54,754 nt of DNA. Source: Candidatus Aenigmatarchaeota archaeon (lineage in GTDB: Archaea; Aenigmatarchaeota; Aenigmatarchaeia; JACPZZ01). Of this stretch, positions 2,543 to 16,258 are shown piece after piece. A model generated the notes under the pieces. The model saw only the letters and a program-made list of their open reading frames with translations, did no database searches and was not told the DNA's origin. The stretch lies in contig JACOVS010000039.1 in NCBI GenBank assembly GCA_016177205.1, positions 1 to 54,754 of the forward strand. Reading direction: 5' to 3'. Numbering within the stretch: the first letter of the stretch is position 1; every line of letters starts with the position of its first letter. The translations under genes and the position numbers were made by a program.

Positions 2543-3856
2543 TTACTTTGCGCTCGTCCTTATCTCGATTTGTGCCATGGCGGCATACTCGTATTCGCCG
2601 AAATCGTAGTTCAAAACCTTCACGTAATAGGTGTTTCCTTTGGCAAGGTCAAAGAAACAGCTTTCCGCTGCCGGGCCCGAGGCGCCTCTGTAACAGATTG
2701 CCGAAGCTTGCACCCCGCCGTCAGAACCGCACACATCACGGCTGCCCGCCGCCGCGCTGTAAACGGTGAAATCCATGTCGGCGTAATAATTGGCGCCGCC
2801 CACCGGCTTTTTGGCCGGGCCCACAGTAACATTCGCACGCAACGCCTCGCTCCCGGAATAACTAAAGTTGTAATAACCCGCCTCGCCCCTTGCTAGGCTG
2901 CAACTGTCCGACAAGACCGCACCCGCGGACGCAGAACCCATATAAAACGCGTTGTCGCATCTTGTGTAGCAAGTCTTGGATGTGGTCGATGTGGCCGCTG
3001 TGGTGGTTGTTGTAGTCGTTGTTGTAGCCCTGACATTGGTGGTTGTGGTTGCTCCGACATTGGTGGTTGTGGTAGATCTTCCCGATGTCGTTGTTGTTAT
3101 TGATCCTGTGCCGGCTGAACCGCCTGTTGTGGTCGTTGTGGTTGATGGTGTAGTGCCGATAACGCTGCCGAAGACTTGTCCGCCGCTAAATTCTATGTCA
3201 CAGCGCTCACTGACATAAACATAGTAGCCGACGCCGCTGCTAAACCGGTCTATCGCAGGCCGGCCTTTGTGCGAGAATGTGGATTGCCAGCTGTCACTAG
3301 GATCTTGGTATGTTGAATTCCAGTGCCACGGCGGGACTGTGTTGTAATTCACCTTGCTGCCACAGGTTTTTTGCAGGTCGCTCATGCCGAATTCGCGGTC
3401 GGACGCGATAAACGATCCGCTAATAGGATTGCTTATCATATTCCAGCCCGGCCACAAGGTCAGCCGCCCTGAATTGGATCTCTGCTCCCCTGTTTGCGTA
3501 ACCGTGCATGTGTCGTCCGCCCACACCCAATAACCCTTGCCCGGTTCAAGGCTGGTAAAATCTCCGGCCCTGTCGCTCTGCCATTGCTGCGTGAAACCAT
3601 TAAAGTGCCAGACCGGTTTTGCCGAGTTCCTTTTACAATTGGAATAAATAGAACCCGGCTCGCTCGCGGATCCGATCGGGATTGGTGTGCCCGTGGGCGA
3701 AGAAATCATGTTCCAGCCTGTTCTAAGTGTTAGATGCACCGTAGGTTCCGGTCCAGGAGGGGTCGGCTGGGCCAATGCCGTTACGGACGCAAAAAGAAAT
3801 GTTAAGAGGTAACAGAACAAAAACAGGTGCGATTTTATGAAAGGCCTGTTTTTCAT
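2543..3856 (-). CDS. secreted protein: Sec-type signal peptide, two GWNMIS-containing repeats, Thr-rich linker, C-terminal pre-peptidase (PPC)-like domain
   Basis: N-terminal hydrophobic signal ending ALAQP. Repeated LRTGWNMISSP / LWPGWNMISNP and GKGYWVW-type motifs. About 60-aa poly-Thr tract. C-terminal YYNFSY...DMDFTVY...YYVKV pattern. Confidence 0.7.
   Translation of the reverse strand: MKNRPFIKSHLFLFCYLLTFLFASVTALAQPTPPGPEPTVHLTLRTGWNMISSPTGTPIPIGSASEPGSIYSNCKRNSAKPVWHFNGFTQQWQSDRAGDFTSLEPGKGYWVWADDTCTVTQTGEQRSNSGRLTLWPGWNMISNPISGSFIASDREFGMSDLQKTCGSKVNYNTVPPWHWNSTYQDPSDSWQSTFSHKGRPAIDRFSSGVGYYVYVSERCDIEFSGGQVFGSVIGTTPSTTTTTTGGSAGTGSITTTTSGRSTTTTNVGATTTTNVRATTTTTTTTTAATSTTSKTCYTRCDNAFYMGSASAGAVLSDSCSLARGEAGYYNFSYSGSEALRANVTVGPAKKPVGGANYYADMDFTVYSAAAGSRDVCGSDGGVQASAICYRGASGPAAESCFFDLAKGNTYYVKVLNYDFGEYEYAAMAQIEIRTSAK
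2976..3165 (-). repeat. low-complexity Thr-codon tract with a 24-nt tandem duplication (gacattggtggttgtggt at 3032..3049 and 3056..3073)
   Basis: Direct reading of the sequence. It encodes TTTTNVGATTTTNVRA inside the poly-Thr linker of the 437-aa protein. Confidence 0.8.
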
Positions 3857-3889
3857 CGTTTGGCAATTCTCCTTTGATTATTATCCGTA

Positions 3890-4285
3890 TCAGGTGATTC
3901 CAGGCGGCGGACTAGGCGGCCCGCCCGGTGGTGAAGTCGTCGTAGTCGCTGCCGAAGCAACTCCGGGACAACCGCACCCGATTTTGACTTTTAACTTCTC
4001 GTCAGCGTCACCGCACGGCGTCGCATCGCCCGCATCAAGAACTATTCCCTTTGCCGCAGCACAAAGGCTTGAAGACGGGTCTCCGCTACAGCCTGTGTTG
4101 ACTAAAACCTGGCATTGTTTGTTAAATTCCGCCCTGGCCGCCTGGTTCGTCGCAAATGGGTTCCAGACGCCCATAAATACAGCAACGACAGCGATCAGAA
4201 TAATCACCGCGATCGCTAGAATAACAAGCATGTCAATGGGGAGCGAAACGCCTTTTTTGGTTGAGCTTTTTCCTAAAAAGGTCAT
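3890..4285 (-). CDS. type IV pilin-like protein (class III signal peptide), Cys-rich, Thr/Pro-rich tail
   Basis: N-terminus KKG|VSLPIDMLVILAIAVIILIAVVAVF. 6 Cys in the ectodomain. GCGCPG motif followed by TTTTSPPGGPPSPPPG. Confidence 0.75.
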   Translation of the reverse strand: MTFLGKSSTKKGVSLPIDMLVILAIAVIILIAVVAVFMGVWNPFATNQAARAEFNKQCQVLVNTGCSGDPSSSLCAAAKGIVLDAGDATPCGDADEKLKVKIGCGCPGVASAATTTTSPPGGPPSPPPGIT

Positions 4286-4289
4286 ATTA

Positions 4290-4586
4290 TCATCCCGGGC
4301 AGCCGCAGCCCTTCTTCACGGCAAGCCTGTCCGCGTCTGTGTCGCACGTCGCCTTGTTAAGAACAAGGCCGTTTGCCGCTGCACACAAAGCTGTCGAAGG
4401 GTTTCCCGCGCAACCCGTGTTGACCAAAACCTGGCACTCCTTGTTGAAATTGGCCCGCGCCTGCTGGTTCGTAGCGAACGGGTTCCAGACGCCCATGAAC
4501 ACGGCAACAACCGCTATCAGAATAATTACGGCTATCGCCAGGATTACAAGCATGTCGATTGGAAGTGAAACGCCTTTTCTCTTCAT
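4290..4586 (-). CDS. type IV pilin-like protein (class III signal peptide); candidate major pilin
   Basis: MKRKG|VSLPIDMLVILAIAVIILIAVVAVF. 98 aa, 6 Cys, ends GCGCPG. It has its own TATA-like box and an AAGGT upstream. Confidence 0.8.
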   Translation of the reverse strand: MKRKGVSLPIDMLVILAIAVIILIAVVAVFMGVWNPFATNQQARANFNKECQVLVNTGCAGNPSTALCAAANGLVLNKATCDTDADRLAVKKGCGCPG

Positions 4587-4618
4587 TTTGACCTTATTAT
4601 CTATTTTCTCCGAAATGG

Positions 4619-4626
4619 TTTAAATA
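4619..4626 (-). promoter_or_regulatory. candidate archaeal TATA box (TATTTAAA on the coding strand) for the 98-aa pilin gene
   Basis: TTTAAATA lies 33-40 nt upstream of the ATG at 4586, with an AAGGT Shine-Dalgarno-like motif in between. Confidence 0.4.
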
Positions 4627-4632
4627 GGTGTT

Positions 4633-5961
4633 TCAGACAGGCTGCAAACCAGCAGGCAGGGAACAGGCGGCTGCATTGTTCTTCAATTCTGTGGAAACGA
4701 CCTGGCCGTTCTTTATTATTGTGCAGCTGTGCGTCATATAATTGAATTTTAACGTCTCGTAAGGAAACGGCTTGGCAACGCTAGGTATGTTGTTAATAGT
4801 CTTCGACGGGACAAAGCCGCCCGGGTCTTCGGACGAGTATTTCCCGTACACGTCGGCCAGGAATGTAAACGTTATTGATTTTGTCTTTGTGGTGCCGGAA
4901 CAGGTTTGGGTTTTTGTATCTTCTCCGGGCACGCACACGCAGTTCTCAACCACTTCCCCGTCAGCGTCGGTTATTGTGGTGCAGCTTTCCGTCTTGCACG
5001 GGTTTGTGAAATTGTAGTTGCAGCTGAACGAACAGGAGCCCGTGGCCAGGGTCGCGTCGCTTAACGCGTACCCGGCCCCGTTGGTCAAAGAACCGTGCTT
5101 TTCAAACTTCGCATTAAACGCTGCAAATGGGACGCCCGGTATAGGCCCGGAAATAGGAACGCTGTCCAATGCGGAATAGTCTGTCATTGCCAAAACCTCG
5201 GACGCCGTCGGCTCGGACGCCTCCGAAAGCGGGCAGGCGCTGCTAAAGGGGTCTGCAGAATTGCAGAATGAAACAGGCTCTGTGCATTTTGGCGCGAGTT
5301 TTGTTTTTGTACCTCCGGTGTTGATAGAAGCGAATGCTTCATTTATCCTGTCAACCGGTTCGCCGCTGTCCAGAAATTGTTTCGCAGCATTGTACAGCGC
5401 GAAATATTTTAATTTCACTTCCTGGTCTATGTAGCCTTTCACGTCCGTAACTATAGTTATTGCCTGTGTTTGCAGGGCCTTTGAAATTTTTACCTCCTTG
5501 TCGCCTTTAACGTAAAACTTTTCAGATTTTGAAAAGTCGCTGTTGTCCGGGACGACTTGGATGTTCGTATCCCCGTAATCGATTGCCAGGAATTTTCCAG
5601 CTATGGAATGTTGCTGTAAACTGGCGATTTCGTTATCGATGTAACGTTTCAGCGTATCCTTTATAGTATCTTCGCTCGGCGGTGTTTTCCATATAGCTGT
5701 TCCGTCCTTCTGCGGTGCCAAATTGTCCAGACCGCCGGCTGAACCGGCTCTCATGGGTCCTGTCTGGGAATAAATTAAAACCGCCTCTTCCAGCGTTTTC
5801 CGTGCCAGTTCAGCGTAGTTTATGGTTGAAAAGCTCTCCTTGTGCCTTTCGGAAACGATAAAAGCCTCTGATGGTATGACCGACCTAAACCACCAAATTA
5901 TTCCGACGCCGATCATTACCATTATGATGCTTCCCATGAACGTGTTGACGCTTCCTTTCAT
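4633..5961 (-). CDS. pilus-associated protein with prepilin-like N-terminus and a large Cys-rich ectodomain
   Basis: MKG|SVNTFMGSIIMVMIGVGIIWWF. 442 aa, about 12 Cys clustered in the C-terminal half. The start lies 1 nt after the stop of the upstream gene. Confidence 0.7.
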   Translation of the reverse strand: MKGSVNTFMGSIIMVMIGVGIIWWFRSVIPSEAFIVSERHKESFSTINYAELARKTLEEAVLIYSQTGPMRAGSAGGLDNLAPQKDGTAIWKTPPSEDTIKDTLKRYIDNEIASLQQHSIAGKFLAIDYGDTNIQVVPDNSDFSKSEKFYVKGDKEVKISKALQTQAITIVTDVKGYIDQEVKLKYFALYNAAKQFLDSGEPVDRINEAFASINTGGTKTKLAPKCTEPVSFCNSADPFSSACPLSEASEPTASEVLAMTDYSALDSVPISGPIPGVPFAAFNAKFEKHGSLTNGAGYALSDATLATGSCSFSCNYNFTNPCKTESCTTITDADGEVVENCVCVPGEDTKTQTCSGTTKTKSITFTFLADVYGKYSSEDPGGFVPSKTINNIPSVAKPFPYETLKFNYMTHSCTIIKNGQVVSTELKNNAAACSLPAGLQPV

Positions 5962-5962
5962 G

Positions 5963-6544
5963 TTATTTCACCGTCGAATACAGCCTGTAAATCGCGATCT
6001 TGCAGCCCGCGCACGTCTCGTAAGGCAGGTAAAACTCAACTTCCGCCGTCTCCGGATCGTTTACGATTTTTTCGTCGTTCCTTTTTGCTATTACCAGCCT
6101 TTTCGTTATCACGTTTCCCGCGACGTCAAACTGCTTCCTTAGCTCGAATATGTACGGGCCCTGGACCAATTTGTCAAAAACATTCTGCGCCTCCTGGTAC
6201 ACGTTCCGCAGGCTGCCGTCTGCTAAAACTTCCCCGTCCCAGTTCGGACTTCCGTCCCACTGGAACGCGGCGTTCGATAATATTCTCCTGCTCTGCGGTT
6301 CATTGGCGCTTAATCTGATCTCAGTCCCTGAAACAAGGGCGTTTTCCGTGTTCAGCGAAAAATCCAAAAACGTGGCGTGCACGGTAAAATCTATCAAATT
6401 GCCGACGATCAGCCGCGCAATGCTCATCGAGAACAGCATTATCATGGTCACAAAAAATATCGTTATCAGGAAAAAGAACGTTGATACGTACCAGACGTCG
6501 CCCTTCATCATTCTCTTTTGGTTGAGCTTTTTGGAAAAGGTCAT
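5963..6544 (-). CDS. pilus-associated protein with prepilin-like N-terminus
   Basis: KRMMKG|DVWYVSTFFFLITIFFVTMIMLF. 193 aa. Tightly packed in the operon. Confidence 0.65.
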   Translation of the reverse strand: MTFSKKLNQKRMMKGDVWYVSTFFFLITIFFVTMIMLFSMSIARLIVGNLIDFTVHATFLDFSLNTENALVSGTEIRLSANEPQSRRILSNAAFQWDGSPNWDGEVLADGSLRNVYQEAQNVFDKLVQGPYIFELRKQFDVAGNVITKRLVIAKRNDEKIVNDPETAEVEFYLPYETCAGCKIAIYRLYSTVK

Positions 6545-6545
6545 A

Positions 6546-6986
6546 TCAACCGACCTTCGGGACGTAAACTTTCATCGTGCCGGGTATTATCGTATCCGTC
6601 ATTTTTACCGCAACCGGATGCTCCCAAACCCTGTTTTTTTCCTTCAGTATCGAGTCGTCGCCGAAAACCCAGCCCTGTGAGTCTGTGGTTATGACCACAA
6701 GGTATTTTGTTATGTCAGCGAAGCCGAATTTTTCCGAGAATGAATCGTTGTTTAAGTTGTTTAGCTTGTCCGTATCAAGCACGCCTTTTCTGTAGTCGGG
6801 CTCTGTTTGTGTTAAAAAGGGCGCGCCTGCCATGTACTGCGAAAATATCAAGTATTCTCGGTCGATCTGTTTTCCGTGTATTTGCAGGCTGAACGATTGA
6901 AACTGCACAAGCGTCGCTAAAATGCCGAGTATGCTCACCACAAGGGCGACAATCTTGATAAAATTTTCGGCAATGAATGTGGACAT
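6546..6986 (-). CDS. N-terminally anchored pilus-locus protein
   Basis: 146 aa with a single N-terminal hydrophobic helix IKIVALVVSILGILATLV. Abuts its neighbours with 0-1 nt gaps. Confidence 0.6.
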   Translation of the reverse strand: MSTFIAENFIKIVALVVSILGILATLVQFQSFSLQIHGKQIDREYLIFSQYMAGAPFLTQTEPDYRKGVLDTDKLNNLNNDSFSEKFGFADITKYLVVITTDSQGWVFGDDSILKEKNRVWEHPVAVKMTDTIIPGTMKVYVPKVG

Positions 6987-7493
6987 CTATTTCACCTGTT
7001 GCTCAACCAAGGTTGTTATTTCGGCGCCTGTTTTTTCCACTCCAGCCTTCCAGTTGTGCTTTTCATCCATTTTCGCGTCAAGGACGTTTATTTCGTTGTC
7101 CGTGGAATGTACCAGGAAAAGTTTTCTGGGAGGTTGTATCTTTACGACCGCCGTGTTCGCCAGGTTAAATATCTCGCGGGTCGAGTCTATGAACATGAAA
7201 TAATTTTCGCCGTCCTTGTCAATTTTTATCCTGTAGGGGTTGGGCGGCATTACAAAGCTTGCCGCGAAATTGTTTCCGGTCATGGCCGCGGCTGCGTGGA
7301 AACCGAACAACGTCTCCGACGCCAGCCGCGCATCGAAATTAAAAACAAACTCCCCCATTGCCGCGCCGGCGGTTACTATGAAAAGGATGCTCATCAGAAG
7401 TATGCCCAATTCTCCCAGGAATATGATAAAATCGCGGACTATGATAATCCCTTTAACCTTTTTAGAAAAAAGCTTAACCAAAAAACCATTCAT
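6987..7493 (-). CDS. pilus-associated protein with prepilin-like N-terminus (start moved to the internal ATG)
   Basis: The ATG at 7493 overlaps the TGA of the upstream 899-aa gene (ATGA). N-terminus is MNGFLVKLFSKKVKG|IIIVRDFIIFLGELGILLMSILFIV. Confidence 0.6.
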   Translation of the reverse strand: MNGFLVKLFSKKVKGIIIVRDFIIFLGELGILLMSILFIVTAGAAMGEFVFNFDARLASETLFGFHAAAAMTGNNFAASFVMPPNPYRIKIDKDGENYFMFIDSTREIFNLANTAVVKIQPPRKLFLVHSTDNEINVLDAKMDEKHNWKAGVEKTGAEITTLVEQQVK

Positions 7494-10192
7494 CAGCTGC
7501 ACCCGCACACGGTTTTGTAATCTTCTCCCGCCGCTTTCGCCAGCTGCCCAAGCGTGCATTTGTTCGCGCCGCAGATCAGCGCGTTCTTTTCAGCGTAATC
7601 AACGCCCGAGCACACGAAATCGCCTGTGCATTGCGCTATGCCGCAGCAGGCCCGCATTGCCAGTTTTGCCGCGTCCTTAGGATTTTTTTCTATGTTACAC
7701 TGCAATATGTTCATGTCAATGTTTTTCAGCGGCTCGAAAGGCCGGAAGGGCCATGTCGTGTCGTACTCGGTCCACATTTCTATGGAGTTGCACGCAGGTT
7801 GCAAGAGCCAGCCGTACACGGCGAGCTTTCCAACGTCCGCTATCACAGAGCACGCCAGCGAGCCGTAAAATCCCGCTGCCATTTCGTTGAACTTGCCCTC
7901 GTCAAAGTAGCAGTAGTTTGAACGCCCTGGTGTTGGGCATTTATCGACGTCTGCGATGACTACAGGCTCGCCGTTCTTGGATCCGTCCTCGTAAAAGCTG
8001 ATTTGCGCCAGGCACGGAGAAACGAGGTGGAACCTTGGATTTTTCTCAAAAGAAAACGCGCCCAACCCAGCCCCGAGGGGCGACGTGAAACCGTCGCGTT
8101 TTAGCTTCAAGTCAACGGCTTTTGAGACAACGTAAACCGTTTCATAATCCTTTATCCGTTCTTCCGCGACGTCCGATTTTCTCTGCTCGACCCCCTTCTG
8201 GTTCAAACACACCGTATTGGATTCGCAGCCCGCGTTTGGCGATTTAAGGTAGCTATACTTCAACTCGTCCTCGACGTCGCTCGCGGCGTAGCCCATGACG
8301 TTCATTTTTATGAATTTGCTTGTCCCCTTTGGGCTCCACCCGTCCAGGCTGTCGTAAATTGCGTACGGCAAAAATTCGTACTCGTCCTTTGCCATCAGCG
8401 CCAGCATTTCCGGCTCCCGTTTCCAGGAAGCGGAAAATTTCGCGATTTCCAGCGCGTCGTCCGCGTCGCCTGTTATGCTGTTGGCCAGTTTCAGCTCGCT
8501 TTCGTAATCGCGCAACAGTCTTTTTCCGTAATTCGGCACGTCGAATTTTTTGTTCACGGATTCTATTACGTCGTCGCCAACACCCGCAGCTTTTAATTCA
8601 GTTATATAACTGCTTCTCAATTTTGACGCGATCGACGCTACGTCTCCGTCAGTTGCTGTTCCGGACAGGAATCTTCCGTAAGCGCCCGACGTAACCCCGG
8701 TTCCTGCGCCGTCCGTGGCTGTTTTCAGAGACGATTCCAAAAACGAGAATATCGCCGTATCCGTCTCCGCGCCCGCGATTATGGCCTTGTCGCTTGCGAA
8801 GAATTTTCCTGTAATAGCGGCCATGCTGTCCGGGTCTGTGATTTGTGTCTCAAGTTTCAGGCCCGCAAACCTCTTTTGTATGTTCTCCGAAATTTCCGGC
8901 AGCAGGTTTCCTTGGTCGTCGAAGAATCTCATGGAGCGGAAAACCGGTATCGCGTCAACGCTCTTGGAAAATCTTTTTATGCCGGTTTGTTCAAAAAATG
9001 AAGTTATCGGCCTGGACGGATAAAGACCGTATCTTGCCGCCATCTTCCGCGAGTTTGCGTCAAAAGATTCTTTCGCCTTTTTCATCGCGCCGTTCATCAG
9101 CCCGTAAAACCCTTTGTCGGCTGTTTCCGAATCCTGGACAATTTTTCTGAAAGTGATTTTTGACAGGTCCGTTATCTCGTTCTGCAGCGCAACATCGGCC
9201 GCTTTGTACGCGAAAAAGCTGTCAAGGTTCCTGCCCATCTGTTTTTCTTCTTCCACTGCGCTACTGCCCAGTTTGTTTATCAAATTTTGCAACTCCGCCC
9301 TTTTCCCGGCAGGAACAACAGCCTTTTGCACCAGCTCCCCGGTTGCCGTATCCTCTGCGTTTACCATCTTCACGGCAAACTGGTCGCCAAGTTCCTCCGC
9401 CAAATCGTCCTGTATCTTTATCACCTCTATCAGCCCGTTGTCGTCCATTGTTTTCAGGAAACCGAGCCCCACGGTTCTACCGAAAATATTCGGCGCGGTT
9501 TTTGCGGTTATCCATTTTTTCGCGGACAGAACAATTTTGTCAACCCCTGTTACCTCGAAAATGAATTTCATCGAGTTTGTGAGCCCTTTTGTAGCGAGCC
9601 CGCCAAGATACTCCACACCCTTTAGCGGAAGGGTTATCGGCGTTGCGATTATCTTTGCGCCTTTTGCAAAATACTCCGCAACCTCGCCCGCCCGGGTCTT
9701 TGAAACTTTGCTGGCTATCTGGCCGCCTATCCCTGAGGCTTTCAGCGACGACAGGGTCCCGCTGAAAAGCGACAGCCCCATGTTTATGCCGATTATCTGG
9801 GCCATGTTTTTCGTGAAAGGATAGCTCTCGTCGAATTTGTACAGCCCTTGCGCCAGGTTTTCCGGCGATTCCGGGAAGTGCTCCCAGTATATCATGTACT
9901 CGGGTGTGGAGAGGGCTCTATAATCTACAGGGTTCAATGTCAGCGGGCTTCCGACCTTGTTCTGGCACAGCATCGCGTACGTCGTATAGGGGCTGTCTTT
10001 TGTGTAAGTGCCTGTAGTCGCAACGGTATCGACGGCGACTTTTATGTTGTTCGCGGTTTTTTTCGCCAGGTCGTCGCAGTAAGGCCCGCCTATCAGCGTG
10101 TAGATGACATAGGCCGTAATGAACAGTATTAGAATTCCGGCAAGAAGGAAGACCTGGTCCTGGCCGAACCCCTTTTTGTGACTTAGCATCAA
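7493..10192 (-). CDS. giant (899 aa) pilin-like / putative adhesin protein with class III-type signal and a Cys-rich C-terminus
   Basis: MMLSHKKG|FGQDQVFLLAGILILFITAYVIYTLI. About 18 Cys, mostly in the last ~250 aa. Ends KTVCGCS. Confidence 0.75.
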   Translation of the reverse strand: MMLSHKKGFGQDQVFLLAGILILFITAYVIYTLIGGPYCDDLAKKTANNIKVAVDTVATTGTYTKDSPYTTYAMLCQNKVGSPLTLNPVDYRALSTPEYMIYWEHFPESPENLAQGLYKFDESYPFTKNMAQIIGINMGLSLFSGTLSSLKASGIGGQIASKVSKTRAGEVAEYFAKGAKIIATPITLPLKGVEYLGGLATKGLTNSMKFIFEVTGVDKIVLSAKKWITAKTAPNIFGRTVGLGFLKTMDDNGLIEVIKIQDDLAEELGDQFAVKMVNAEDTATGELVQKAVVPAGKRAELQNLINKLGSSAVEEEKQMGRNLDSFFAYKAADVALQNEITDLSKITFRKIVQDSETADKGFYGLMNGAMKKAKESFDANSRKMAARYGLYPSRPITSFFEQTGIKRFSKSVDAIPVFRSMRFFDDQGNLLPEISENIQKRFAGLKLETQITDPDSMAAITGKFFASDKAIIAGAETDTAIFSFLESSLKTATDGAGTGVTSGAYGRFLSGTATDGDVASIASKLRSSYITELKAAGVGDDVIESVNKKFDVPNYGKRLLRDYESELKLANSITGDADDALEIAKFSASWKREPEMLALMAKDEYEFLPYAIYDSLDGWSPKGTSKFIKMNVMGYAASDVEDELKYSYLKSPNAGCESNTVCLNQKGVEQRKSDVAEERIKDYETVYVVSKAVDLKLKRDGFTSPLGAGLGAFSFEKNPRFHLVSPCLAQISFYEDGSKNGEPVVIADVDKCPTPGRSNYCYFDEGKFNEMAAGFYGSLACSVIADVGKLAVYGWLLQPACNSIEMWTEYDTTWPFRPFEPLKNIDMNILQCNIEKNPKDAAKLAMRACCGIAQCTGDFVCSGVDYAEKNALICGANKCTLGQLAKAAGEDYKTVCGCS

Positions 10193-10202
10193 ATAATAAT
10201 CT

Positions 10203-10296
10203 GCTTTCTTTCCCTTAAGGCTATCCCAAGGTTGTTTTCTCTTATCTTAAGGCTTTTCCAAATCTTTTCTTTTTACCTTAAGGGTTTTTCTTTTTT
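10203..10296 (-). repeat. three ~31-nt tandem direct repeats, each centred on CTTAAGG (10214, 10246, 10277)
   Basis: Read directly: tttctttcccttaaggctatccc / tttctcttatcttaaggcttttcc / tttctttttaccttaagggtttttc. Confidence 0.75.
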
Positions 10297-10312
10297 AAAA
10301 GAAAAAGCTTAT
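10265..10312 (-). promoter_or_regulatory. conserved ~48-nt intergenic module, copy 1 (stop codon, TAAGC, T-rich/A-rich palindrome, CCTTAAGG, purine run)
   Basis: Near-identical to 13218..13266 and similar to 48113..48162. Lies between the 107-aa pilin gene and the 899-aa gene. Confidence 0.6.
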
Positions 10313-10635
10313 CAGCAACCGCAGAACGTTTTTACTTTGTCGGGCGAGATCCCTATCTTGTCCGCCGCCGACCCAAGGGATATCTGGTTTTTTAAGTCCC
10401 CGGAACCGAAAGCGGACCTTAAATTTTCCGGCACAGTGCACCAGACCTGGTCCGGGTTGATACATGTCAACGGCATGTTCAACTGGCAGCATGATCGGAC
10501 GAATGTCTGCTTGCCCAGGTCGCTCGTCGGCTGCTGGCCGCCGAAAATTATGACACCGACCAGGACGGCCAACACAACAATAGCAAGAACTATAATGACC
10601 ATTAACTCAACGGCCATCATGCCCTTTTTTCGCAT
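10312..10635 (-). CDS. type IV pilin-like protein (class III signal peptide)
   Basis: MRKKG|MMAVELMVIIVLAIVVLAVLVGVII. 107 aa, 6 Cys, ends KTFCGC. Confidence 0.8.
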   Translation of the reverse strand: MRKKGMMAVELMVIIVLAIVVLAVLVGVIIFGGQQPTSDLGKQTFVRSCCQLNMPLTCINPDQVWCTVPENLRSAFGSGDLKNQISLGSAADKIGISPDKVKTFCGC

Positions 10636-10668
10636 AATATCACACGCCTTCCATCGTATTTTCGTTGA

Positions 10669-11097
10669 TCACGCCTTGACGCATTTTTTCGCCGAGTCGT
10701 CGCATTTTAACCCGGTCGCGCACTTCACAGTGTAACTGCCGCACGCGCTGTCAACCCCGACAGCAAGCACGCCGCAGCATCTTATCTGGCAGTTTTTCGG
10801 GTCTGTTATTCCGGCTTTGTTGCACTGCTCCCACAGGTTTATCTTTTCGCCTTTCAAAGTTATTTCCGAGTCGTCCAGAACTTTTTTGCACGCGGTCTCT
10901 TCGTAATTCACGCCGCACGCGCTGTTCGCGCACCCCACGCCGCCTTGGTAGGTTGCGCACGCAAACTCCAGATTGCCGCCCTGTTTCGCGCTGTTCAGGT
11001 TGGGAATCACGAAAACGAAAACTATTCCCAGTATGACCGCCAAAAGGACCACGCCTATGACAACAACCGTCGCAAGGTTTATTTCTCTCTCAGGCAT
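10669..11097 (-). CDS. N-terminally anchored Cys-rich pilus-locus protein
   Basis: 142 aa. N-terminal helix LATVVVIGVVLLAVILGIVFVFVI. About 12 Cys. Confidence 0.7.
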   Translation of the reverse strand: MPEREINLATVVVIGVVLLAVILGIVFVFVIPNLNSAKQGGNLEFACATYQGGVGCANSACGVNYEETACKKVLDDSEITLKGEKINLWEQCNKAGITDPKNCQIRCCGVLAVGVDSACGSYTVKCATGLKCDDSAKKCVKA

Positions 11098-11102
11098 CTA
11101 AA

Positions 11103-11297
11103 TCAGCACTGTATCCTTAAACCCTTCATCAGCTGGCACAACGCGTCGCCTATCAACGGGACAGCGTTTAATCCTGCCGGTTTCCCTATCACAGCGACGA
11201 GCAAAACGCCCGCACCCAGGATTATTACCAGGCCGGCGACAACCAGCGCAAGCAGCAGGGGCTTGTCGCCTATCTGTCCCTTACTGGCATTTGCCAT
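11103..11297 (-). CDS. mini pilin-like protein (64 aa)
   Basis: MANASKG|QIGDKPLLLALVVAGLVIILGAGVLLVAVI. 2 Cys. Overlaps the 3' end of the upstream gene by 17 nt. Confidence 0.5.
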   Translation of the reverse strand: MANASKGQIGDKPLLLALVVAGLVIILGAGVLLVAVIGKPAGLNAVPLIGDALCQLMKGLRIQC

Positions 11298-11607
11298 AAT
11301 TCGTACCCCTTATTTCAGACACGCATTTTTTCCCGGCCGCGCAATCCTCGTTGTTGTCTATTCCCTTCCACGCCCTGCACCCGCACTCATTCTTGCCTTC
11401 AACGGTGTGCACGCACGCTTTGTTGTCGGTATTTCCGCAGAAATCCTGTTTTGCCAGGCACCCTGCCGCGGATATTATCTCGTTCCTGTCCCTTTCAACG
11501 TTCTCGCCGCTGCTTTTTATCCAGCCAAGGTAGAGTGCCAGCAATACCAGCGCAATGACCAGCGCCATCATCAACGCGAAATTGTATTCTGACATGCCTT
11601 TCCGCAT
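11281..11607 (-). CDS. type IV pilin-like protein (class III signal peptide)
   Basis: MRKG|MSEYNFALMMALVIALVLLALYLG. 108 aa, 8 Cys. Confidence 0.75.
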   Translation of the reverse strand: MRKGMSEYNFALMMALVIALVLLALYLGWIKSSGENVERDRNEIISAAGCLAKQDFCGNTDNKACVHTVEGKNECGCRAWKGIDNNEDCAAGKKCVSEIRGTNYGKCQ

Positions 11608-11642
11608 AGGATTATTTTGTTTTTGCCGACTTTATTATCCAT

Positions 11643-13193
11643 CTATGGGTTGTTTATGTTGGGGGGCATTACTTTTGTCAGCGAAATATCCTTGAACCCG
11701 TTCCTTCCTTTATCGTCCGCTCTCTCATCAAAGGCGGGAGGCGGGAATTCCTTGCCGTTCGGGTAAAACCATCTAACTGTTCCTGTTCCGTCCGTTACCC
11801 GTATGTTGTCGTAATACGAAACCACTTGCTGGTTGTTGCCGGCGTCGTATCCTATCACAACATCAACGATGTCCACAGCCTTGCCCCATACGCCGGGCGG
11901 CGCGGGTAAAATTCTGTGGTACCATTTTCCGCACGCAAACTCTGTAAGGTCCATACCCGAAGCGTCTGAAACGTCTGGTTTCGCTCTAACCCATTCGTTG
12001 TTTAACCAGTCATACGACCATCTCCAGTACGGAAGGTTGTTCCATTCATTGTACGGGTCAGCCTTGGCCCTTAGTTCTATCCCCCCGACCTCCTTTTCGC
12101 ACGTGCGGAGGAATACGTCATACTCGATAATGTCGCCGGGTCTTATTGTGTACGGCGAATCTATTTCATACGCTTTCAAATACAGCAACTTACCTTCGCC
12201 GGTTGCTGCCAGTTTGAGTATCTCGTCTGAGTGCGCCCCTATATCGCTTTGCGGGCTCGCCTGAGTCGGAGGTACGTACACTACCGGTATGACCATCGCA
12301 CTGGTTTTATCTTGATCGTACCTGCAAGTTCCCCCGCACCCCTCCTTTTCAAGGAGAGCCGAACTTTCTTCGAAAAAGACGTGTTTGTCGCCGTTCGTAG
12401 ATTTTATCACTATGTTATCGTAAAGCGCTGCATAAACAACGCCGCCCTTGGTGTCTTTAGTTTCGTAAGTTTCACCGCCCATTACCAGTGATATCTTCTC
12501 AAGCGTCTTGCCCCCCTTTGGTATAGGCAATACCCTGTGGTACCATTTCCTGTAGGCATAAGGTGTCATATCGCTGTCTTTGGCCGCTTTCGTCGGGTCT
12601 TTATCGCAGTTTTTAAGTGTTCCAACAAGACCCACGCCATCCTTCCAGCTATCATCGTCGTCCATCTTGCCTCCTGTTGTTTCAATGGTTATCCCGCCTG
12701 TACAGGGTGTTTTCAAAGGCAGGTAAACATCATACTCCAGCACATCCCCGTTTTTTATAAGGTACTGGGTTGATCCTCCTATCGGCACGCCTGCTGAAAT
12801 TTTCAGTCGTATTTTATTGCCGCCAGAAGCGCTGGTCGGCGCAATAAAGTGCAACACGTTCCCGCTCGGCCGGCCTACGTAATTAAGCAGTGCCTTGCAC
12901 GCGTCACTTGGTTCGCATTTGTTGTTCTTGCACGTTTCTTCCGTCGAACACAACCTGCCCGACGAGGTTGGCGTAGCTTCGCATAGGGCGCCGCACTGGG
13001 CCGGTGTCGTCGTACCGTCGCCCGAAGAGCCGCTGCTGTCAGGAATTATCTTATTCAGCCACGGAACTTTATTCAAGAAATCCTTGAAAGCGCCGGATGT
13101 ATTCAAACCAACTATAACACCCAGAACAACAAGAAGGACAATAACGCCCAGCGCTAACCCCAAAACGTGCGCGTCCATCCCTTTTCTTGTCAT
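11643..13193 (-). CDS. large pilin-like protein with a Cys-rich stalk and two tandem beta-sandwich-like repeats
   Basis: MTRKG|MDAHVLGLALGVIVLLVVLGVIVG. Internal duplication marked by GDVLEYDVYL/GDIIEYDVFL, KWYHRVLPIP/KWYHRILPAP and LYDNIVI/YYDNIRV. Confidence 0.75.
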   Translation of the reverse strand: MTRKGMDAHVLGLALGVIVLLVVLGVIVGLNTSGAFKDFLNKVPWLNKIIPDSSGSSGDGTTTPAQCGALCEATPTSSGRLCSTEETCKNNKCEPSDACKALLNYVGRPSGNVLHFIAPTSASGGNKIRLKISAGVPIGGSTQYLIKNGDVLEYDVYLPLKTPCTGGITIETTGGKMDDDDSWKDGVGLVGTLKNCDKDPTKAAKDSDMTPYAYRKWYHRVLPIPKGGKTLEKISLVMGGETYETKDTKGGVVYAALYDNIVIKSTNGDKHVFFEESSALLEKEGCGGTCRYDQDKTSAMVIPVVYVPPTQASPQSDIGAHSDEILKLAATGEGKLLYLKAYEIDSPYTIRPGDIIEYDVFLRTCEKEVGGIELRAKADPYNEWNNLPYWRWSYDWLNNEWVRAKPDVSDASGMDLTEFACGKWYHRILPAPPGVWGKAVDIVDVVIGYDAGNNQQVVSYYDNIRVTDGTGTVRWFYPNGKEFPPPAFDERADDKGRNGFKDISLTKVMPPNINNP

Positions 13194-13217
13194 TTTTGAC
13201 CTCTTGATTATCTATTA

Positions 13218-13266
13218 TTTTCTTTTTACCTTAAGGGTTTTTCTTTTTTAAAAGAAAAAAGCTTAT
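13218..13266 (-). promoter_or_regulatory. conserved ~48-nt intergenic module, copy 2
   Basis: ttttctttttaccttaagggtttttcttttttaaaagaaaaaagcttat matches copy 1 except for one extra A. Lies between the 67-aa and 516-aa genes. Confidence 0.6.
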
Positions 13267-13466
13267 ATATTACAAATGGCCGACCCGAACCCGCCCATGG
13301 ATGTCGCTAAAAACCCGCATATCCCTTTTCCAACAGTCATCGCAAGCCCGCCCGAACCCGCCTCTTCATTTGCGAACGCTATCACAACAACCAGGACAAC
13401 TATGGCCACGACAACCGCGCCGATGAAAACAAGCATGGCGCTCGTTATGCCTTTTTTATCAGTCAC
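13263..13466 (-). CDS. mini pilin-like protein (67 aa, GTG start)
   Basis: TDKKG|ITSAMLVFIGAVVVAIVVLVVVIAF. 2 Cys. The start overlaps the upstream stop (GTGA). Confidence 0.6.
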   Translation of the reverse strand: MTDKKGITSAMLVFIGAVVVAIVVLVVVIAFANEEAGSGGLAMTVGKGICGFLATSMGGFGSAICNI

Positions 13467-13708
13467 TTAACCACTCCCACCGTGTGCGCATAAAGCCACG
13501 TCGACGCCCTTAGCGGGAAGCAAACGGTTTTATCAACCAGTCCGCCGCCCACGTCGCACGCGTTCGGTATGTTCGCGCCGGATGAAATGCCCTGTAACGC
13601 TATTATAACCGCTATTATCACGGCTAACGCCACTATAGCCAGTATCGCAAGGAAAAAAGTCTTTCCCGCCTCCGCCTCTATCTGCCCCTTCACCATTGCC
13701 GTTTTCAT
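13463..13708 (-). CDS. pilin-like protein (start moved to the ATG at 13708)
   Basis: MKTAMVKG|QIEAEAGKTFFLAILAIVALAVIIAVIIAL. GAAAGGAAAC lies upstream of the ATG. 2 Cys. Confidence 0.6.
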   Translation of the reverse strand: MKTAMVKGQIEAEAGKTFFLAILAIVALAVIIAVIIALQGISSGANIPNACDVGGGLVDKTVCFPLRASTWLYAHTVGVVK

Positions 13709-13753
13709 TTTAATAGTTTCCTTTCCACCAAAGCCCAAGATTTTTCTTTTCCC

Positions 13754-14182
13754 TTATCGCCTGTCCACATCCACTTCTATCAGCGACGCCCCGCCGGTTA
13801 ATGATATTTTGACGTCGTAAACCTTTTTATCAGCGTTTATCGTATCGCCCGTGTATTTCCACGCTAGGTTTTCACAGTCCGTATCCGCGAGCTTGGCCGC
13901 TATTTCCGCAGCTCCGAGAGAACCGGACGTGGATTTGTATTGCGACGTGCTGTCAAAGCCTTTTGCAAAACTGCTTCTCGACTGCCAGAGGCTGCACATG
14001 CCGTACGCTATCCTCGTCGCAAGCACGTCTGCGTTGTCCACGTACAAGTCGCCCGTTTCTGGTAGCTGGTTGAACCTTATCAGCCTTGGCAGTATCAATG
14101 ACGCTACCCCGTATAGCAGGGACGCTACAATGAACGCCGCAACTAGCCAGAACAAAAACCTTGGCTGGTCGGCGGCTGCCAT
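13754..14182 (-). CDS. N-terminally anchored pilus-locus protein
   Basis: 142 aa. N-terminal helix FLFWLVAAFIVASLLYGVASLIL. The ATG overlaps the platform gene stop by 1 nt. Confidence 0.6.
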   Translation of the reverse strand: MAAADQPRFLFWLVAAFIVASLLYGVASLILPRLIRFNQLPETGDLYVDNADVLATRIAYGMCSLWQSRSSFAKGFDSTSQYKSTSGSLGAAEIAAKLADTDCENLAWKYTGDTINADKKVYDVKISLTGGASLIEVDVDRR

Positions 14183-16254
14183 TATAATCCTCCGATTATG
14201 CTGTCTTTTATCTGCGACCCCAGCGTCGAATAAACAACAGTTATCGCCAGCACGTAAACGACCAGCGAAATGAACATGTTAATAGATAGCGTGTGGTAAA
14301 GATTTATCCTGTCCTCGCCCGTTTCAATCTTGCTGACAAAGTACGACAACAATCCGGCGACCTCGATCATGTAGATTCCTACGACCAATTGGAACACCTC
14401 TGCCGTTACCCCGCCCTTGTCAAGCCCGACTGTCAAAAATAACGGCAAACTGGAGCCGACGCCCTGCGCGGTCAGGTCCGCTAATTTTTCTCCGAGAACT
14501 TTGATTATGTCCAGCATTATCAGCGCCATCGTCACCGTCACGCCGGCGACCATCGGTGCAAGGATCGCGCCCAAAAATTTCATGCTTGTCGTGCTCTCGC
14601 CCAGGATATCGCGCAGCTCCTCTTCGATGGCGTGAACGTCTTTAAGGTAACGGGAAATGGACAGCATGGATTGGGATGCGTTGTAAACGCCCTTCCTGAC
14701 CGCTTCCACGACAACCTTCATCACCGAGATTATGAGGCTGGACGGGTAATACCAAACGGCTCCGTAGTTTTTGTCGAATATAGCCTGCTCAAAGGTCATG
14801 CCCAGCCTCTTTATATTTTGAACGATGCGGCCGAAGAAATCGGATATTCCAAGGTCGCGGATTTTTTCCTGGTTCTTATCTATTGCGTTTTCTATCGGCG
14901 TCCCTGACGATAACTGGTTGCCTAAATGGAAAATCGCTTCCGCAAACTCGTTCTCGACGCTTATTACTTTCCTGCGTACGCTTGTTCTCTGGAAACTTTC
15001 CAGGAACGCATAAAGTGACATTGGCAGCGAGATTGATGCGATGATTACAGTCGAGTACATCACGCGCGCAAAAGACGTTGCCGCGCTGTTCGTCATGCCG
15101 CTGTAGCCGATGAAGAAAAGCGCGGCGAAAAGCAGGGCCGGCAGTATGTATGTCCTGATTTCGATTTTTTTGCCCGACAAATGCGCCCGGAAATAGCCTT
15201 CCTTGGGCGTGTCCGGGTGCTCTGAAACGTCCGGTTTCGACAGCGTCGGCGGTTTCGTCGCCAATATGTTTGACGTGTACCAGTACAGCCCTAGGAACAA
15301 GAATACGTCGTACCCGAGGAAAAGCATGTACGGTTGCACTATGTTAGAAAGGAATAACACCAGCACAGGGAACATCACGAGCCCCATTATCGGCAGCAAA
15401 ATCCCCATTGCGTGAATGATCAGCAGCGGCATACGCAAGTTTTGCGCGTAGTGGCCCATCCTCTCCCTTGTTCCTTTCAGTATCACGTCAACGGCCTCGT
15501 CCAGCATTACAAGGCGCTTTTTCTCGGGCTGGTCCACCGAATTCCGTATCAGCGTCAGCGCCGAAGAGAACTCCTCGTTTTCGTTTTTCCACCGCGAACT
15601 GATGTATTTGTCAAGGGCCCTGTCTATGCTGTCCTCCTTTCTCATGTATATGTCCCACAGCAGCTTCCGGAAATCCAAAGCGAGCGGTCCCGTAAGGTTC
15701 GTCGCAACGAATTTGACAGCGTTCTCCAGGTTGGGGGATATTCTCATGGAGATAACCATGTAAACGACCGATAACACGATCTCTTCCGACGCCTTTACGC
15801 GGAAATCGCGCGCTTTTTTTGCCGGATAGCCGTGGATATAAACTCCCGACAGTATGGAAAAAACCAGCATGGTAACGCCGATGAATATCGGCACGGCCCC
15901 AATTGCGGCCGCGGCAACTGAAACCAGGACGAGAAATATCGGCAGAAGGAACGCTGCCGATGTTATACCCGCGGGCGTGCACTGCAAACCGGTGAAGTCT
16001 ATCTCTTTGCGCAACTGCTCTGCGGAGCTCTTCGAAGGCTCGACCTTGAGTATTTTTTCGGAAATGGAACAAAGTTTTTCGTAGATATTCAGTTTCTTCT
16101 TGGCCCCCCTCTCTTCGGTCTTGAAGGTTTTGTAGTCAAGGGACAGGAATTGTTCCTCGCTCCTTTCATCGTCTCCGCTGTCCTCGAAAATCCTGGGTTC
16201 GTAATCGCGCGCTATCCTGTTTAGTTCGTCCTCGTCTATTCGTCTCTCTCCCAT
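14182..16254 (-). CDS. polytopic membrane platform protein (FlaJ/TadC/PilC-like, T2SS F-type)
   Basis: 690 aa. Cytoplasmic N-terminus followed by two blocks of hydrophobic helices separated by a soluble domain. Lies 4 nt downstream of the secretion ATPase. Confidence 0.75.
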   Translation of the reverse strand: MGERRIDEDELNRIARDYEPRIFEDSGDDERSEEQFLSLDYKTFKTEERGAKKKLNIYEKLCSISEKILKVEPSKSSAEQLRKEIDFTGLQCTPAGITSAAFLLPIFLVLVSVAAAAIGAVPIFIGVTMLVFSILSGVYIHGYPAKKARDFRVKASEEIVLSVVYMVISMRISPNLENAVKFVATNLTGPLALDFRKLLWDIYMRKEDSIDRALDKYISSRWKNENEEFSSALTLIRNSVDQPEKKRLVMLDEAVDVILKGTRERMGHYAQNLRMPLLIIHAMGILLPIMGLVMFPVLVLFLSNIVQPYMLFLGYDVFLFLGLYWYTSNILATKPPTLSKPDVSEHPDTPKEGYFRAHLSGKKIEIRTYILPALLFAALFFIGYSGMTNSAATSFARVMYSTVIIASISLPMSLYAFLESFQRTSVRRKVISVENEFAEAIFHLGNQLSSGTPIENAIDKNQEKIRDLGISDFFGRIVQNIKRLGMTFEQAIFDKNYGAVWYYPSSLIISVMKVVVEAVRKGVYNASQSMLSISRYLKDVHAIEEELRDILGESTTSMKFLGAILAPMVAGVTVTMALIMLDIIKVLGEKLADLTAQGVGSSLPLFLTVGLDKGGVTAEVFQLVVGIYMIEVAGLLSYFVSKIETGEDRINLYHTLSINMFISLVVYVLAITVVYSTLGSQIKDSIIGGL

Positions 16255-16258
16255 CGTA

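Follow-up and report, generated by a model that had tools for sequence, protein, structure and literature searches.

Even cysteine counts of exported proteins and a predicted pilin head family ending in Cys-Gly-Cys in Candidatus Aenigmatarchaeota

Why do the secreted proteins of an archaeal pilus locus all contain an even number of cysteines, and what is the role of a K-x-x-C-G-C motif that recurs among its pilin-like proteins? The question is raised by a type IV pilus-like operon at positions 2543-18529, minus strand, of contig JACOVS010000039.1 from a Candidatus Aenigmatarchaeota archaeon. The whole contig, 54,754 nucleotides (nt) long, is called the window in this text and is contig C17 of a 604.8-kb assembly (50 contigs, 71.5% complete). 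A T2SSE-family ATPase is encoded at the head of the operon, followed by a polytopic protein of 690 amino acids (aa) and by sixteen genes whose products all start with a hydrophobic N-terminal segment, most of them with a class III (prepilin-like) K/R-G leader and one of them, a 437-aa protein, with an ordinary Sec signal. The best overall explanation, to which we assign a probability of about 0.6, is that the exported proteome of this organism is disulfide-paired and that CGC serves as a double intramolecular staple of a new pilin head family.

In a scripted recount, every per-protein cysteine figure of the initial annotation, which had been counted by eye, was reproduced and odd numbers were not found. 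All sixteen proteins possess an even number of cysteines or none in their mature parts, and the fourteen that contain any cysteine are all even (P ~6e-5 against a null of 0.5; among the cytoplasmic proteins of the same genome 48.6% are even). Gene calling over the whole assembly with a codon-usage scorer gave 668 genes at 88% coding density, and proteins were classed by hydropathy as exported (one hydrophobic segment, at the N-terminus, with one or more cysteines beyond it) or as cytoplasmic (no hydrophobic segment). Genome-wide, the number of cysteines is even in 51 of 52 exported versus 189 of 389 cytoplasmic proteins (Fisher P 1e-13), the sole odd exported case being a 76-aa open reading frame (ORF) with a single cysteine in or beside its hydrophobic segment. 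With the pilus locus removed, 37 of 38 exported proteins are even (P 1.4e-10), and the bias is robust over four hydropathy settings (88-98% even; 88-96% in the three alternative ones). Exported proteins are also richer in cysteine than cytoplasmic ones (1.63 versus 1.04 per 100 aa), and 24 exported proteins of the genome have exactly two. The even-cysteine rule is a trait of the whole exported proteome of the organism and not of the pilus locus, which is the densest block of exported cysteine-rich proteins in the genome.

That even cysteine counts indicate disulfides is a textbook principle, and the bias in exported proteins has been employed as a marker of extracytoplasmic disulfide bonding (Mallick 2002; Dutton/Beckwith 2008; both as outlined in Daniels et al., 2010, PMC2823432). 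Since the genome-wide parity corresponds to this published signature, the earlier proposal that all cysteines of the locus are paired in extracellular disulfides is well supported as regards pairing, and we infer strongly that exported cysteines are joined as disulfides outside the cytoplasm. Parity is just as strict among the exported proteins encoded elsewhere, and the inference has to be extended to the whole exported proteome.

Turning to the motif, CGC is present six times among all 668 predicted proteins. Five of these occurrences lie within the locus, and these five, which all have a lysine at position -3, are the only K-x-x-C-G-C motifs of the genome. Shuffled locus proteins contain on average 0.024 K-x-x-C-G-C motifs, and none of 20,000 shuffles reaches five. 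The four copies initially reported are all present as described, and a fifth one, KNECGC at nt 11377-11394, had been missed. The proteins that carry the motif or are assigned to the head family described below are the following, with cysteine abbreviated as Cys and hidden Markov model as HMM.

3890..4285, minus strand: pilin, 131 aa, 6 Cys, 79% identical in sequence to the 98-aa protein and its paralogue, with KIGCGC at nt 3968-3985
4290..4586, minus strand: pilin, 98 aa, 6 Cys, family member by head-only HMM, with KKGCGC at nt 4299-4316
7493..10192, minus strand: pilin-like giant, 899 aa, 18 Cys, ending in KTVCGCS (nt 7499-7516), from Cys count and motif
10312..10635, minus strand: pilin, 107 aa, 6 Cys, family member of the 'CC' subtype by head-only HMM, with KTFCGC at nt 10315-10332, the extreme C-terminus
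10669..11097, minus strand: pilin, 142 aa, 12 Cys, probable family member (family profile E 4e-7 over residues 6-107), with a 4-Cys tail after the head
11281..11607, minus strand: pilin-like protein, 108 aa, 8 Cys, from the motif, with the internal KNECGC followed by a 3-Cys tail

The cysteines of the 98-aa protein follow the pattern C51-x7-C59-x8-C68-x12-C81-x12-C94-G-C96, those of the 107-aa protein the pattern C49-C50-x7-C58-x7-C66...C105-G-C107. The head module of the 142-aa protein ends in C-x3-CC (CQIRCC, nt 10774-10791), not in CGC, and the last ~55 aa of the 899-aa protein display a CC...C...C...CGC pattern like that of the 107-aa head. Conservation in orthologues, which the initial annotation had suggested examining, is complete for CGC in both subfamilies. 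Among 31 sequences homologous to the 98- and 131-aa pilins (49-90% identity), no exception occurs at C51, C59, C68, C94, G95, or C96, and C81 is nearly invariant; all 12 sequences orthologous to the 107-aa pilin keep C49, C50, C58, C66, C105, G106, and C107. The K-x-x-CGC end of the 899-aa protein is retained by its orthologues within the genus and is CSC in a sister genus.

The motif had been placed at the extreme C-terminus, where it indeed lies in the 107-aa protein; in the 131-aa protein it is found 25 residues from the end, being followed by a 25-aa Thr/Pro-rich tail. Many homologues run on past CGC with Thr/Pro/Gly linkers and cysteine-rich modules, and a processing site, one of the functions envisaged for CGC at the outset, is unlikely. 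Since the sequence continues past CGC, the motif marks the end of a domain and not a terminus. Prenylation of the Rab-like C-terminal type (CXC/CC) was set aside, the motif being equally conserved ahead of extensions longer than 20 residues. The extensions after CGC carry 4-18 cysteines, and all these numbers are even but for P0044, which looks like a fusion of ORFs. In the annotation of this metagenomic protein of 283 aa, one of three odd-cysteine outliers, the pilin is joined to a ferredoxin-like region of the 2x[4Fe-4S] type (CIGCGTC...CIGCRAC), probably by a fusion in gene calling and not as a real pilin-ferredoxin. In many homologues (P0008, P0011, P0013, P0014, P0016, P0020, and P0023) the CGC head is followed by a small recurrent add-on consisting of a Thr/Gly-rich linker and C-x5-C-x4-C-x14-16-C, and the tail of the 142-aa protein of the window (C-x6-C-x5-C-x6-C) resembles this add-on.

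A profile constructed from both subfamilies was compared with 1.84 billion representative proteins (clusters at 50% identity) and retrieved 723 clusters at E <= 1e-3, 74 of them at E <= 1e-10. Among the best 150 of the 723 clusters, 92 have exactly six cysteines, 99 possess CGC and 131 some form of CxC, and most of the others end the module in CC. Once leader and helix are removed, the number of cysteines is even in all but three of the 189 family members (186). When 73 diverse members are aligned, C51, C59, C94, and C96 (98-aa numbering) are the only invariant columns, with K4 and G5 of the cleavage site nearly invariant in the same members. These comparisons define a core C1-x7-C2 ... C5-x-C6, represented by C51, C59, C94, and C96 in the 98-aa and by C50, C58, C105, and C107 in the 107-aa protein. 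K-x-x-C-G-C is, at the level of sequence, the conserved end of a predicted pilin head domain of ~55-70 residues that follows the class III signal and the hydrophobic helix, and this head domain defines a large, unannotated family of putative pilins with four invariant cysteines. All homologues with a source name come from Candidatus Aenigmatarchaeota. A profile scan within the phylum detects the family in 144 of 301 sampled genomes and in 81 of 151 genera, with 1-9 copies per genome, and its distribution is structured by lineage (34/34 in family f12, 12/12 in f6, and 15/15 in f15 versus 0/23 in f9). Of the proteins encoded in the window, those of 98, 131, and 107 aa have E values of 1e-10 to 1e-13 against the head-only HMM. 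Two further candidates were not accepted as family homologues and display likeness at the level of the motif only: the 108-aa protein (E 0.016 with the full profile, 1.8 with the head alone) and the C-terminal module of the 899-aa protein, of which hhalign aligns only the last 19 residues with a probability of 5-12%.

AlphaFold2 (AF2) models of the two subtypes have a mean predicted local distance difference test (pLDDT) score of 79.2 for the 98-aa protein (helices 9-56, 65-71, and 84-94; head ~77-82) and of 79.9 for the 107-aa protein (head 76-88, mostly 85-88), and both models predict a head that consists mainly of helix and has no more than two short strands. Foldseek searches of the Protein Data Bank (PDB) with both models returned nothing below E = 5, and full-text searches of the literature on disulfides, cysteines, DsbA, and pili of DPANN archaea and Aenigmarchaeota or on CXC motifs in pilins yielded no account of this family. 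None of the sixteen locus proteins has a Pfam match above threshold; the best ones to Pilin_N (PF07790) reach 18.0 and 14.6 bits, the gathering cut-off being 25.2. Their assignment as probable pilins relies on the combination of a class III signal and hydrophobic helix with an adjacent ATPase and polytopic protein and a prepilin peptidase in the genome, which are the features of archaeal type IV pilins. Basic leaders ending in G/A precede a hydrophobic helix of ~20 residues, as in MKRKG followed by VSLPIDMLVILAIAVIILIAVVAVF and MRKKG followed by MMAVELMVIIVLAIVVLAVLVGV. The prepilin peptidase (Peptidase_A24, PF01478; E 1e-6, above cut-off) is encoded at C30:3639-4505 and is present in 77 of 81 genomes of the class.

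How the cysteines of the head might be connected was derived from natural sequence variation and from a comparison of subtypes. Several members have only the four core cysteines (C-7-C-~40-C-1-C), C3 and C4 being missing together, and since these two are gained or lost as a unit, a C3-C4 disulfide is implied. The partner of C3 shifts, being C81 in the 98-aa type, C49 (making 'CC') in the 107-aa type, and a cysteine beside C2 in the CC-terminal type, and the other five positions stay aligned between subtypes. P0099, which is 70% identical to P0060 and shares with it the first 59 residues, has C2 and C6 both replaced by tyrosine and keeps C1 and C5; L031, a divergent copy inside a 583-aa ORF, is devoid of C2 and of one of C5/C6. 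Depending on the lineage, the terminal pair is CC, CxC, or CPAC. Gains are paired as well, four 107-aa orthologues having acquired two loop cysteines together and C-terminal extensions carrying 4, 6, or 8. In cystine-rich mini-proteins, adjacent cysteines usually bond two different partners. At slightly better than even odds, these variants point to the pairs C1-C5, C2-C6, and C3-C4, which would correspond to C51-C94, C59-C96, and C68-C81 in the 98-aa protein and, at similar odds, to C50-C105, C58-C107, and C49-C66 in the 107-aa protein.

The mechanism proposed starts with oxidation of the exported cysteines, which would be carried out by a membrane-anchored DsbA-like oxidase (CPFC) encoded in this genome, and membrane electron shuttles of the CcdA/DsbD type, together with their exported partners, TlpA/redoxin-like proteins, would provide proof-reading. 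It seems moderately well founded that the two cysteines of CGC are not bonded to each other and that each would participate in a separate intramolecular disulfide (C1-C5 and C2-C6), C3-C4 being the third, movable pair. The disulfides would fasten the C-terminal end of the small, mostly helical head to the upper end of the N-terminal stalk helix, and the double staple would stabilise the head, a role that in bacterial type IVa pilins falls to the disulfide loop of the D-region.

The genome encodes machinery suited to such chemistry. A secreted thiol-disulfide oxidoreductase, which the initial annotation had recommended looking for, was found at C18:871-1590 as a DsbA-like protein of 239 aa with an N-terminal transmembrane anchor and a CPFC site (PF13462 E 3e-34, PF01323 E 4e-19). 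Two CcdA/DsbD_TM proteins are encoded at C30:1849-2565 and C28:12178-13032, each adjoining the gene of an anchored protein of AhpC/TSA or redoxin type, with the sites CINC and CYPGC, and there are in addition a lipoprotein-like thioredoxin with WCPIC and an anchored thioredoxin-like protein with CTSC. At C30:1849-4505, genes for CcdA/DsbD_TM, an anchored TlpA/redoxin-like protein (CINC plus a Thioredoxin_10 domain), and the prepilin peptidase are arranged head to tail. This set lies directly downstream of two pilin-like genes and is kept in four of five genus relatives, not beyond. A functional link through a CcdA-TlpA-prepilin peptidase operon was rejected, the synteny being confined to the genus.

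Several observations weigh against the explanation by disulfides and a double staple. For the connectivity the evidence consists of the subtype comparison and of two natural variants, of which one is a lone metagenomic sequence. In this 71.5% complete genome, DsbB (PF02600) has no match and the best match to VKOR (PF07884) has an E value of only 0.27. Across the phylum, a PF13462-type DsbA is encoded in 139 of 301 genomes, and of the 34 genomes in families f3, f6, f13, f18, and f28, 33 contain the pilins and none contains PF13462; with this mismatched distribution, DsbA as general catalyst for the pilin family was rejected at the level of the phylum. Five genomes of f3, f6, and f13 that are 91-95% complete contain no convincing match to DSBA, VKOR, or DsbD_TM, only marginal sub-threshold fragments. 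The anchored CTSC thioredoxin-like protein (C1:15797-16324) was considered as an alternative catalyst and rejected, its distribution being anti-correlated with that of the pilins. In the DsbA-less relative G033 (383 kb analysed) the bias is weaker, 17 of 23 N-anchored cysteine-containing proteins being even versus 118 of 247 cytoplasmic ones. Aenigmatarchaeota usually come from anoxic groundwater, and the oxidant is uncertain.

A search for Erv/ALR sulfhydryl oxidases gave no matches, but control genomes gave none either. All recognisable pilin-like proteins of G033 are even, and the same genome encodes an anchored CSAC thioredoxin- or glutaredoxin-like protein of 174 aa with no Pfam match. 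The gene of this CSAC protein is divergently paired, at C3:34976-35999 of G033, with that of a 185-aa exported protein with 12 cysteines, and the two are a candidate for an unrecognised oxidase-substrate pair. Lineages devoid of DsbA have CC or CPAC, not CGC, as terminal motif. These lineages may possess an unrecognised oxidase, may depend on uncatalysed oxidation, or may use a di-cysteine with its own chemistry. The CTSC thioredoxin-like family, which corresponds to no Pfam family, is found in 57/58 genomes of f11, 28/35 of f17, 2/34 of f12, and 0/12 of f6. CGC-type pilins, CTSC thioredoxin-like proteins, and PF13462 DsbA have lineage-structured, partly complementary distributions over the families of Aenigmatarchaeota.

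The cysteines of the head could be used in other ways. CGC might be a vicinal (C5-C6) redox-active disulfide with C1 and C2 closing a small x7 loop, and the resulting reactive element might be a self-contained isomerase-like unit or an exchange site with other subunits or host surface proteins; we consider both forms of this idea unlikely. CXC motifs, among them the CPC of Mia40 and synthetic CGC peptides, resemble PDI in redox potential, the family is present in lineages with no recognisable Dsb enzyme, one of which has CPAC, a thioredoxin-like CxxC, and pairing C5 with C6 and C1 with C2 would satisfy parity equally. However, P0099 has lost C2 and C6, not C5 and C6, L031 has lost C2 together with one terminal cysteine, and many members have CC instead of CxC, disulfides between adjacent cysteines being strained and rare; moreover, the AF2 models place the motif at the end of a predicted helix in a compact head. 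A little less probable still is a tetrahedral site for Zn, Fe, or Cu formed by C1, C2, C5, and C6 and free of disulfides, metal binding having been among the functions initially suggested for CGC. Such a site would agree with the invariance of exactly four cysteines, with the frequency of CxC and CC in metallothionein-like sites, with the occurrence of the family in Dsb-less, probably anaerobic lineages, and with an even count. It is disfavoured by the genome-wide even rule, which includes 24 exported two-cysteine proteins that no Cys4 site could account for, by P0099, which retains only two of the four core cysteines, and by the exchange of CGC for CC or CPAC. Furthermore, the spacing C-x7-C ... 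C-x(0-2)-C corresponds to no known zinc knuckle, and no metal-binding family of Pfam was matched by the locus proteins.

The initial annotation had also thought of an inter-subunit crosslink, and some cysteines, those of CGC included, might join neighbouring subunits of the filament. In a homopolymer each subunit would donate and accept a cysteine, which also gives even counts, and CGC lies at or near an exposed C-terminus in several members. Yet correlated loss and movement of partners within one chain fit intramolecular pairs, the motif is as conserved when it is buried between the head and a long C-terminal extension, and it is also present on the 899-aa protein, which is encoded in single copy. 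Intramolecular pairs can account for all cysteines, a crosslink is needed for none of them, and we regard this possibility as improbable, more so than a metal site. That even counts and shared motif merely reflect chance or paralogy was rejected and has a negligible probability: the 98- and 131-aa proteins are indeed paralogues and not independent, but parity (P ~6e-5 for the locus and ~1e-10 outside it), the shuffling of locus sequences, and the invariance of the motif over hundreds of diverged sequences all speak against it.

The remaining genes of the operon, called as ORFs and with their cysteines counted, are listed here from the ATPase downward.

16259..18529, minus strand: type IV filament assembly ATPase, 756 aa, cytoplasmic (Pfam T2SSE PF00437, E 7.8e-20), 3 Cys, an odd number as expected for a cytoplasmic protein
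14182..16254, minus strand: polytopic membrane protein, 690 aa, 2 Cys, adjoining the ATPase in the position of a PilC/TadC-like platform, no Pfam match
13754..14182, minus strand: N-anchored protein, 142 aa, 2 Cys (C63, C103)
13463..13738, minus strand: pilin-like protein, 81/91 aa, 2 Cys (C61, C73) in a C-terminal C-x11-C loop
13263..13466, minus strand: pilin-like protein, 67 aa, 2 Cys (C50, C65) in a C-terminal C-x14-C loop
11643..13193, minus strand: protein of 516 aa with a class III-like signal, 12 Cys
11103..11297, minus strand: pilin-like protein, 64 aa, 2 Cys (C54, C64) in a C-terminal C-x9-C loop
6987..7493, minus strand: pilin-like protein, 168 aa (190 aa from an upstream ATG), 0 Cys
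6546..6986, minus strand: N-anchored protein, 146 aa, 0 Cys
5963..6544, minus strand: pilin-like protein, 193 aa, 2 Cys as CAGC (C178, C181)
4633..5961, minus strand: pilin-like protein, 442 aa, 12 Cys, including CVC at residues 341-343
2543..3856, minus strand: secreted protein, 437 aa, 10 Cys in the mature part, signal peptide of Sec type and poly-Thr linker

The CAGC of the 193-aa protein, a CxxC near its C-terminus that comprises its sole two cysteines, recalls the CPAC ending in lineage f3. In total the 437-aa protein has 11 cysteines, one of them at residue 15 in the h-region of the signal peptide. Two giant exported cysteine-rich proteins are encoded outside the window, at C23:7285-11205 (1306 aa, 52 Cys) and at C46:11664-14144 (826 aa, 20 Cys); the latter has a long poly-Thr run, and the 437-aa protein shares the Thr-rich region and some flanking sequence with it.

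Compared with Dsb-type oxidative folding, as far as it is outlined in Daniels et al. (2010; PMC2823432), the present case is alike in the strong even bias of exported proteins, in its absence from cytoplasmic ones, and in the presence of an exported DsbA-like protein. It differs in that the organism is a DPANN archaeon with a 0.6-Mb genome, in that the bias is extreme (98%) and DsbB/VKOR were not found in the genome, and in that the cysteine-rich pilin family also occurs in relatives with no recognisable DsbA. Bacterial type IVa pilins such as PilA of Pseudomonas and PilE of Neisseria have an alpha-beta roll head with a C-terminal loop, the D-region, closed by one disulfide. In the CGC family, too, C-terminal cysteines are predicted to be tied back by disulfides that stabilise the head outside the cell, and the two-cysteine pilins of the locus with C-x9-C, C-x11-C, or C-x14-C at the C-terminus look like minimal D-loops. 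In contrast, the CGC family would use a double staple made from a C-x(0-2)-C pair, with four core cysteines instead of two, on a small and mostly helical head that has no sequence or Foldseek likeness to any solved pilin. The D-region disulfide may be seen as the closest functional analogue, in the sense that the staple would work like it and not that the family is a member of the same group.

Almost all components of type IV pilus loci in Thermoproteales contain multiple conserved cysteines with predicted disulfides (Makarova et al., 2016, PMC4858521), and 'dark-matter' pilus islands of DPANN archaea are full of unrecognisable pilins, cysteines and disulfides being unmentioned there (Makarova et al., 2019, PMC6393860). 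Neither of these two accounts describes the CGC family, its C1-x7-C2...C5-x-C6 core, or the CGC ending. With archaeal class III pilins (PF07790; PilA1-6 of Haloferax, EpdE of Methanococcus) the locus proteins share the K/R-G leader, the hydrophobic helix of ~20 residues, the position of their genes beside that of an ATPase of the T2SSE family, and a genome that also encodes a prepilin peptidase, but their PF07790 score lies below threshold (18 versus 25.2 bits). To our knowledge, a conserved core with several disulfides is not the basis of the archaeal pilins characterised so far. On sequence grounds, the most plausible reading of CGC is that it closes, as a double staple, the head domain of a new pilin family that extends across the lineage.

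DPANN archaea are ultrasmall, mostly uncultured, and presumed to live fixed to other cells. Pili are prime candidates for this attachment, and the subunits of these pili are almost uncharacterised. A more speculative and rather improbable proposal is that the terminal di-cysteine (CGC, CC, or CPAC) is a reactive thiol-disulfide element, employed for Dsb-free oxidative folding or for mixed disulfides with host surface proteins. If true, such mixed disulfides would give an episymbiont a covalent, redox-reversible grip on its host, like the thioester adhesins of Gram-positive pili in purpose, and a reactive di-cysteine would explain the success of the family in lineages with no recognisable DsbA, DsbB, VKOR, or DsbD. 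With the double staple as the preferred explanation, what is gained is a sequence definition, consisting of a class III signal and C1-x7-C2 ... C5-x(0-2)-C6, of a putative pilin family found in about half of the sampled Aenigmatarchaeota, together with a testable disulfide map. A genome of 0.6 Mb invests in a full extracytoplasmic thiol-redox kit and obeys the even-cysteine rule nearly without exception. The value of these results lies in the definition of the family and in the puzzle of the missing oxidase, that is, how Dsb-less sister lineages in presumably anoxic water oxidise the same cysteine-rich pilins, and not in the even-cysteine principle itself.

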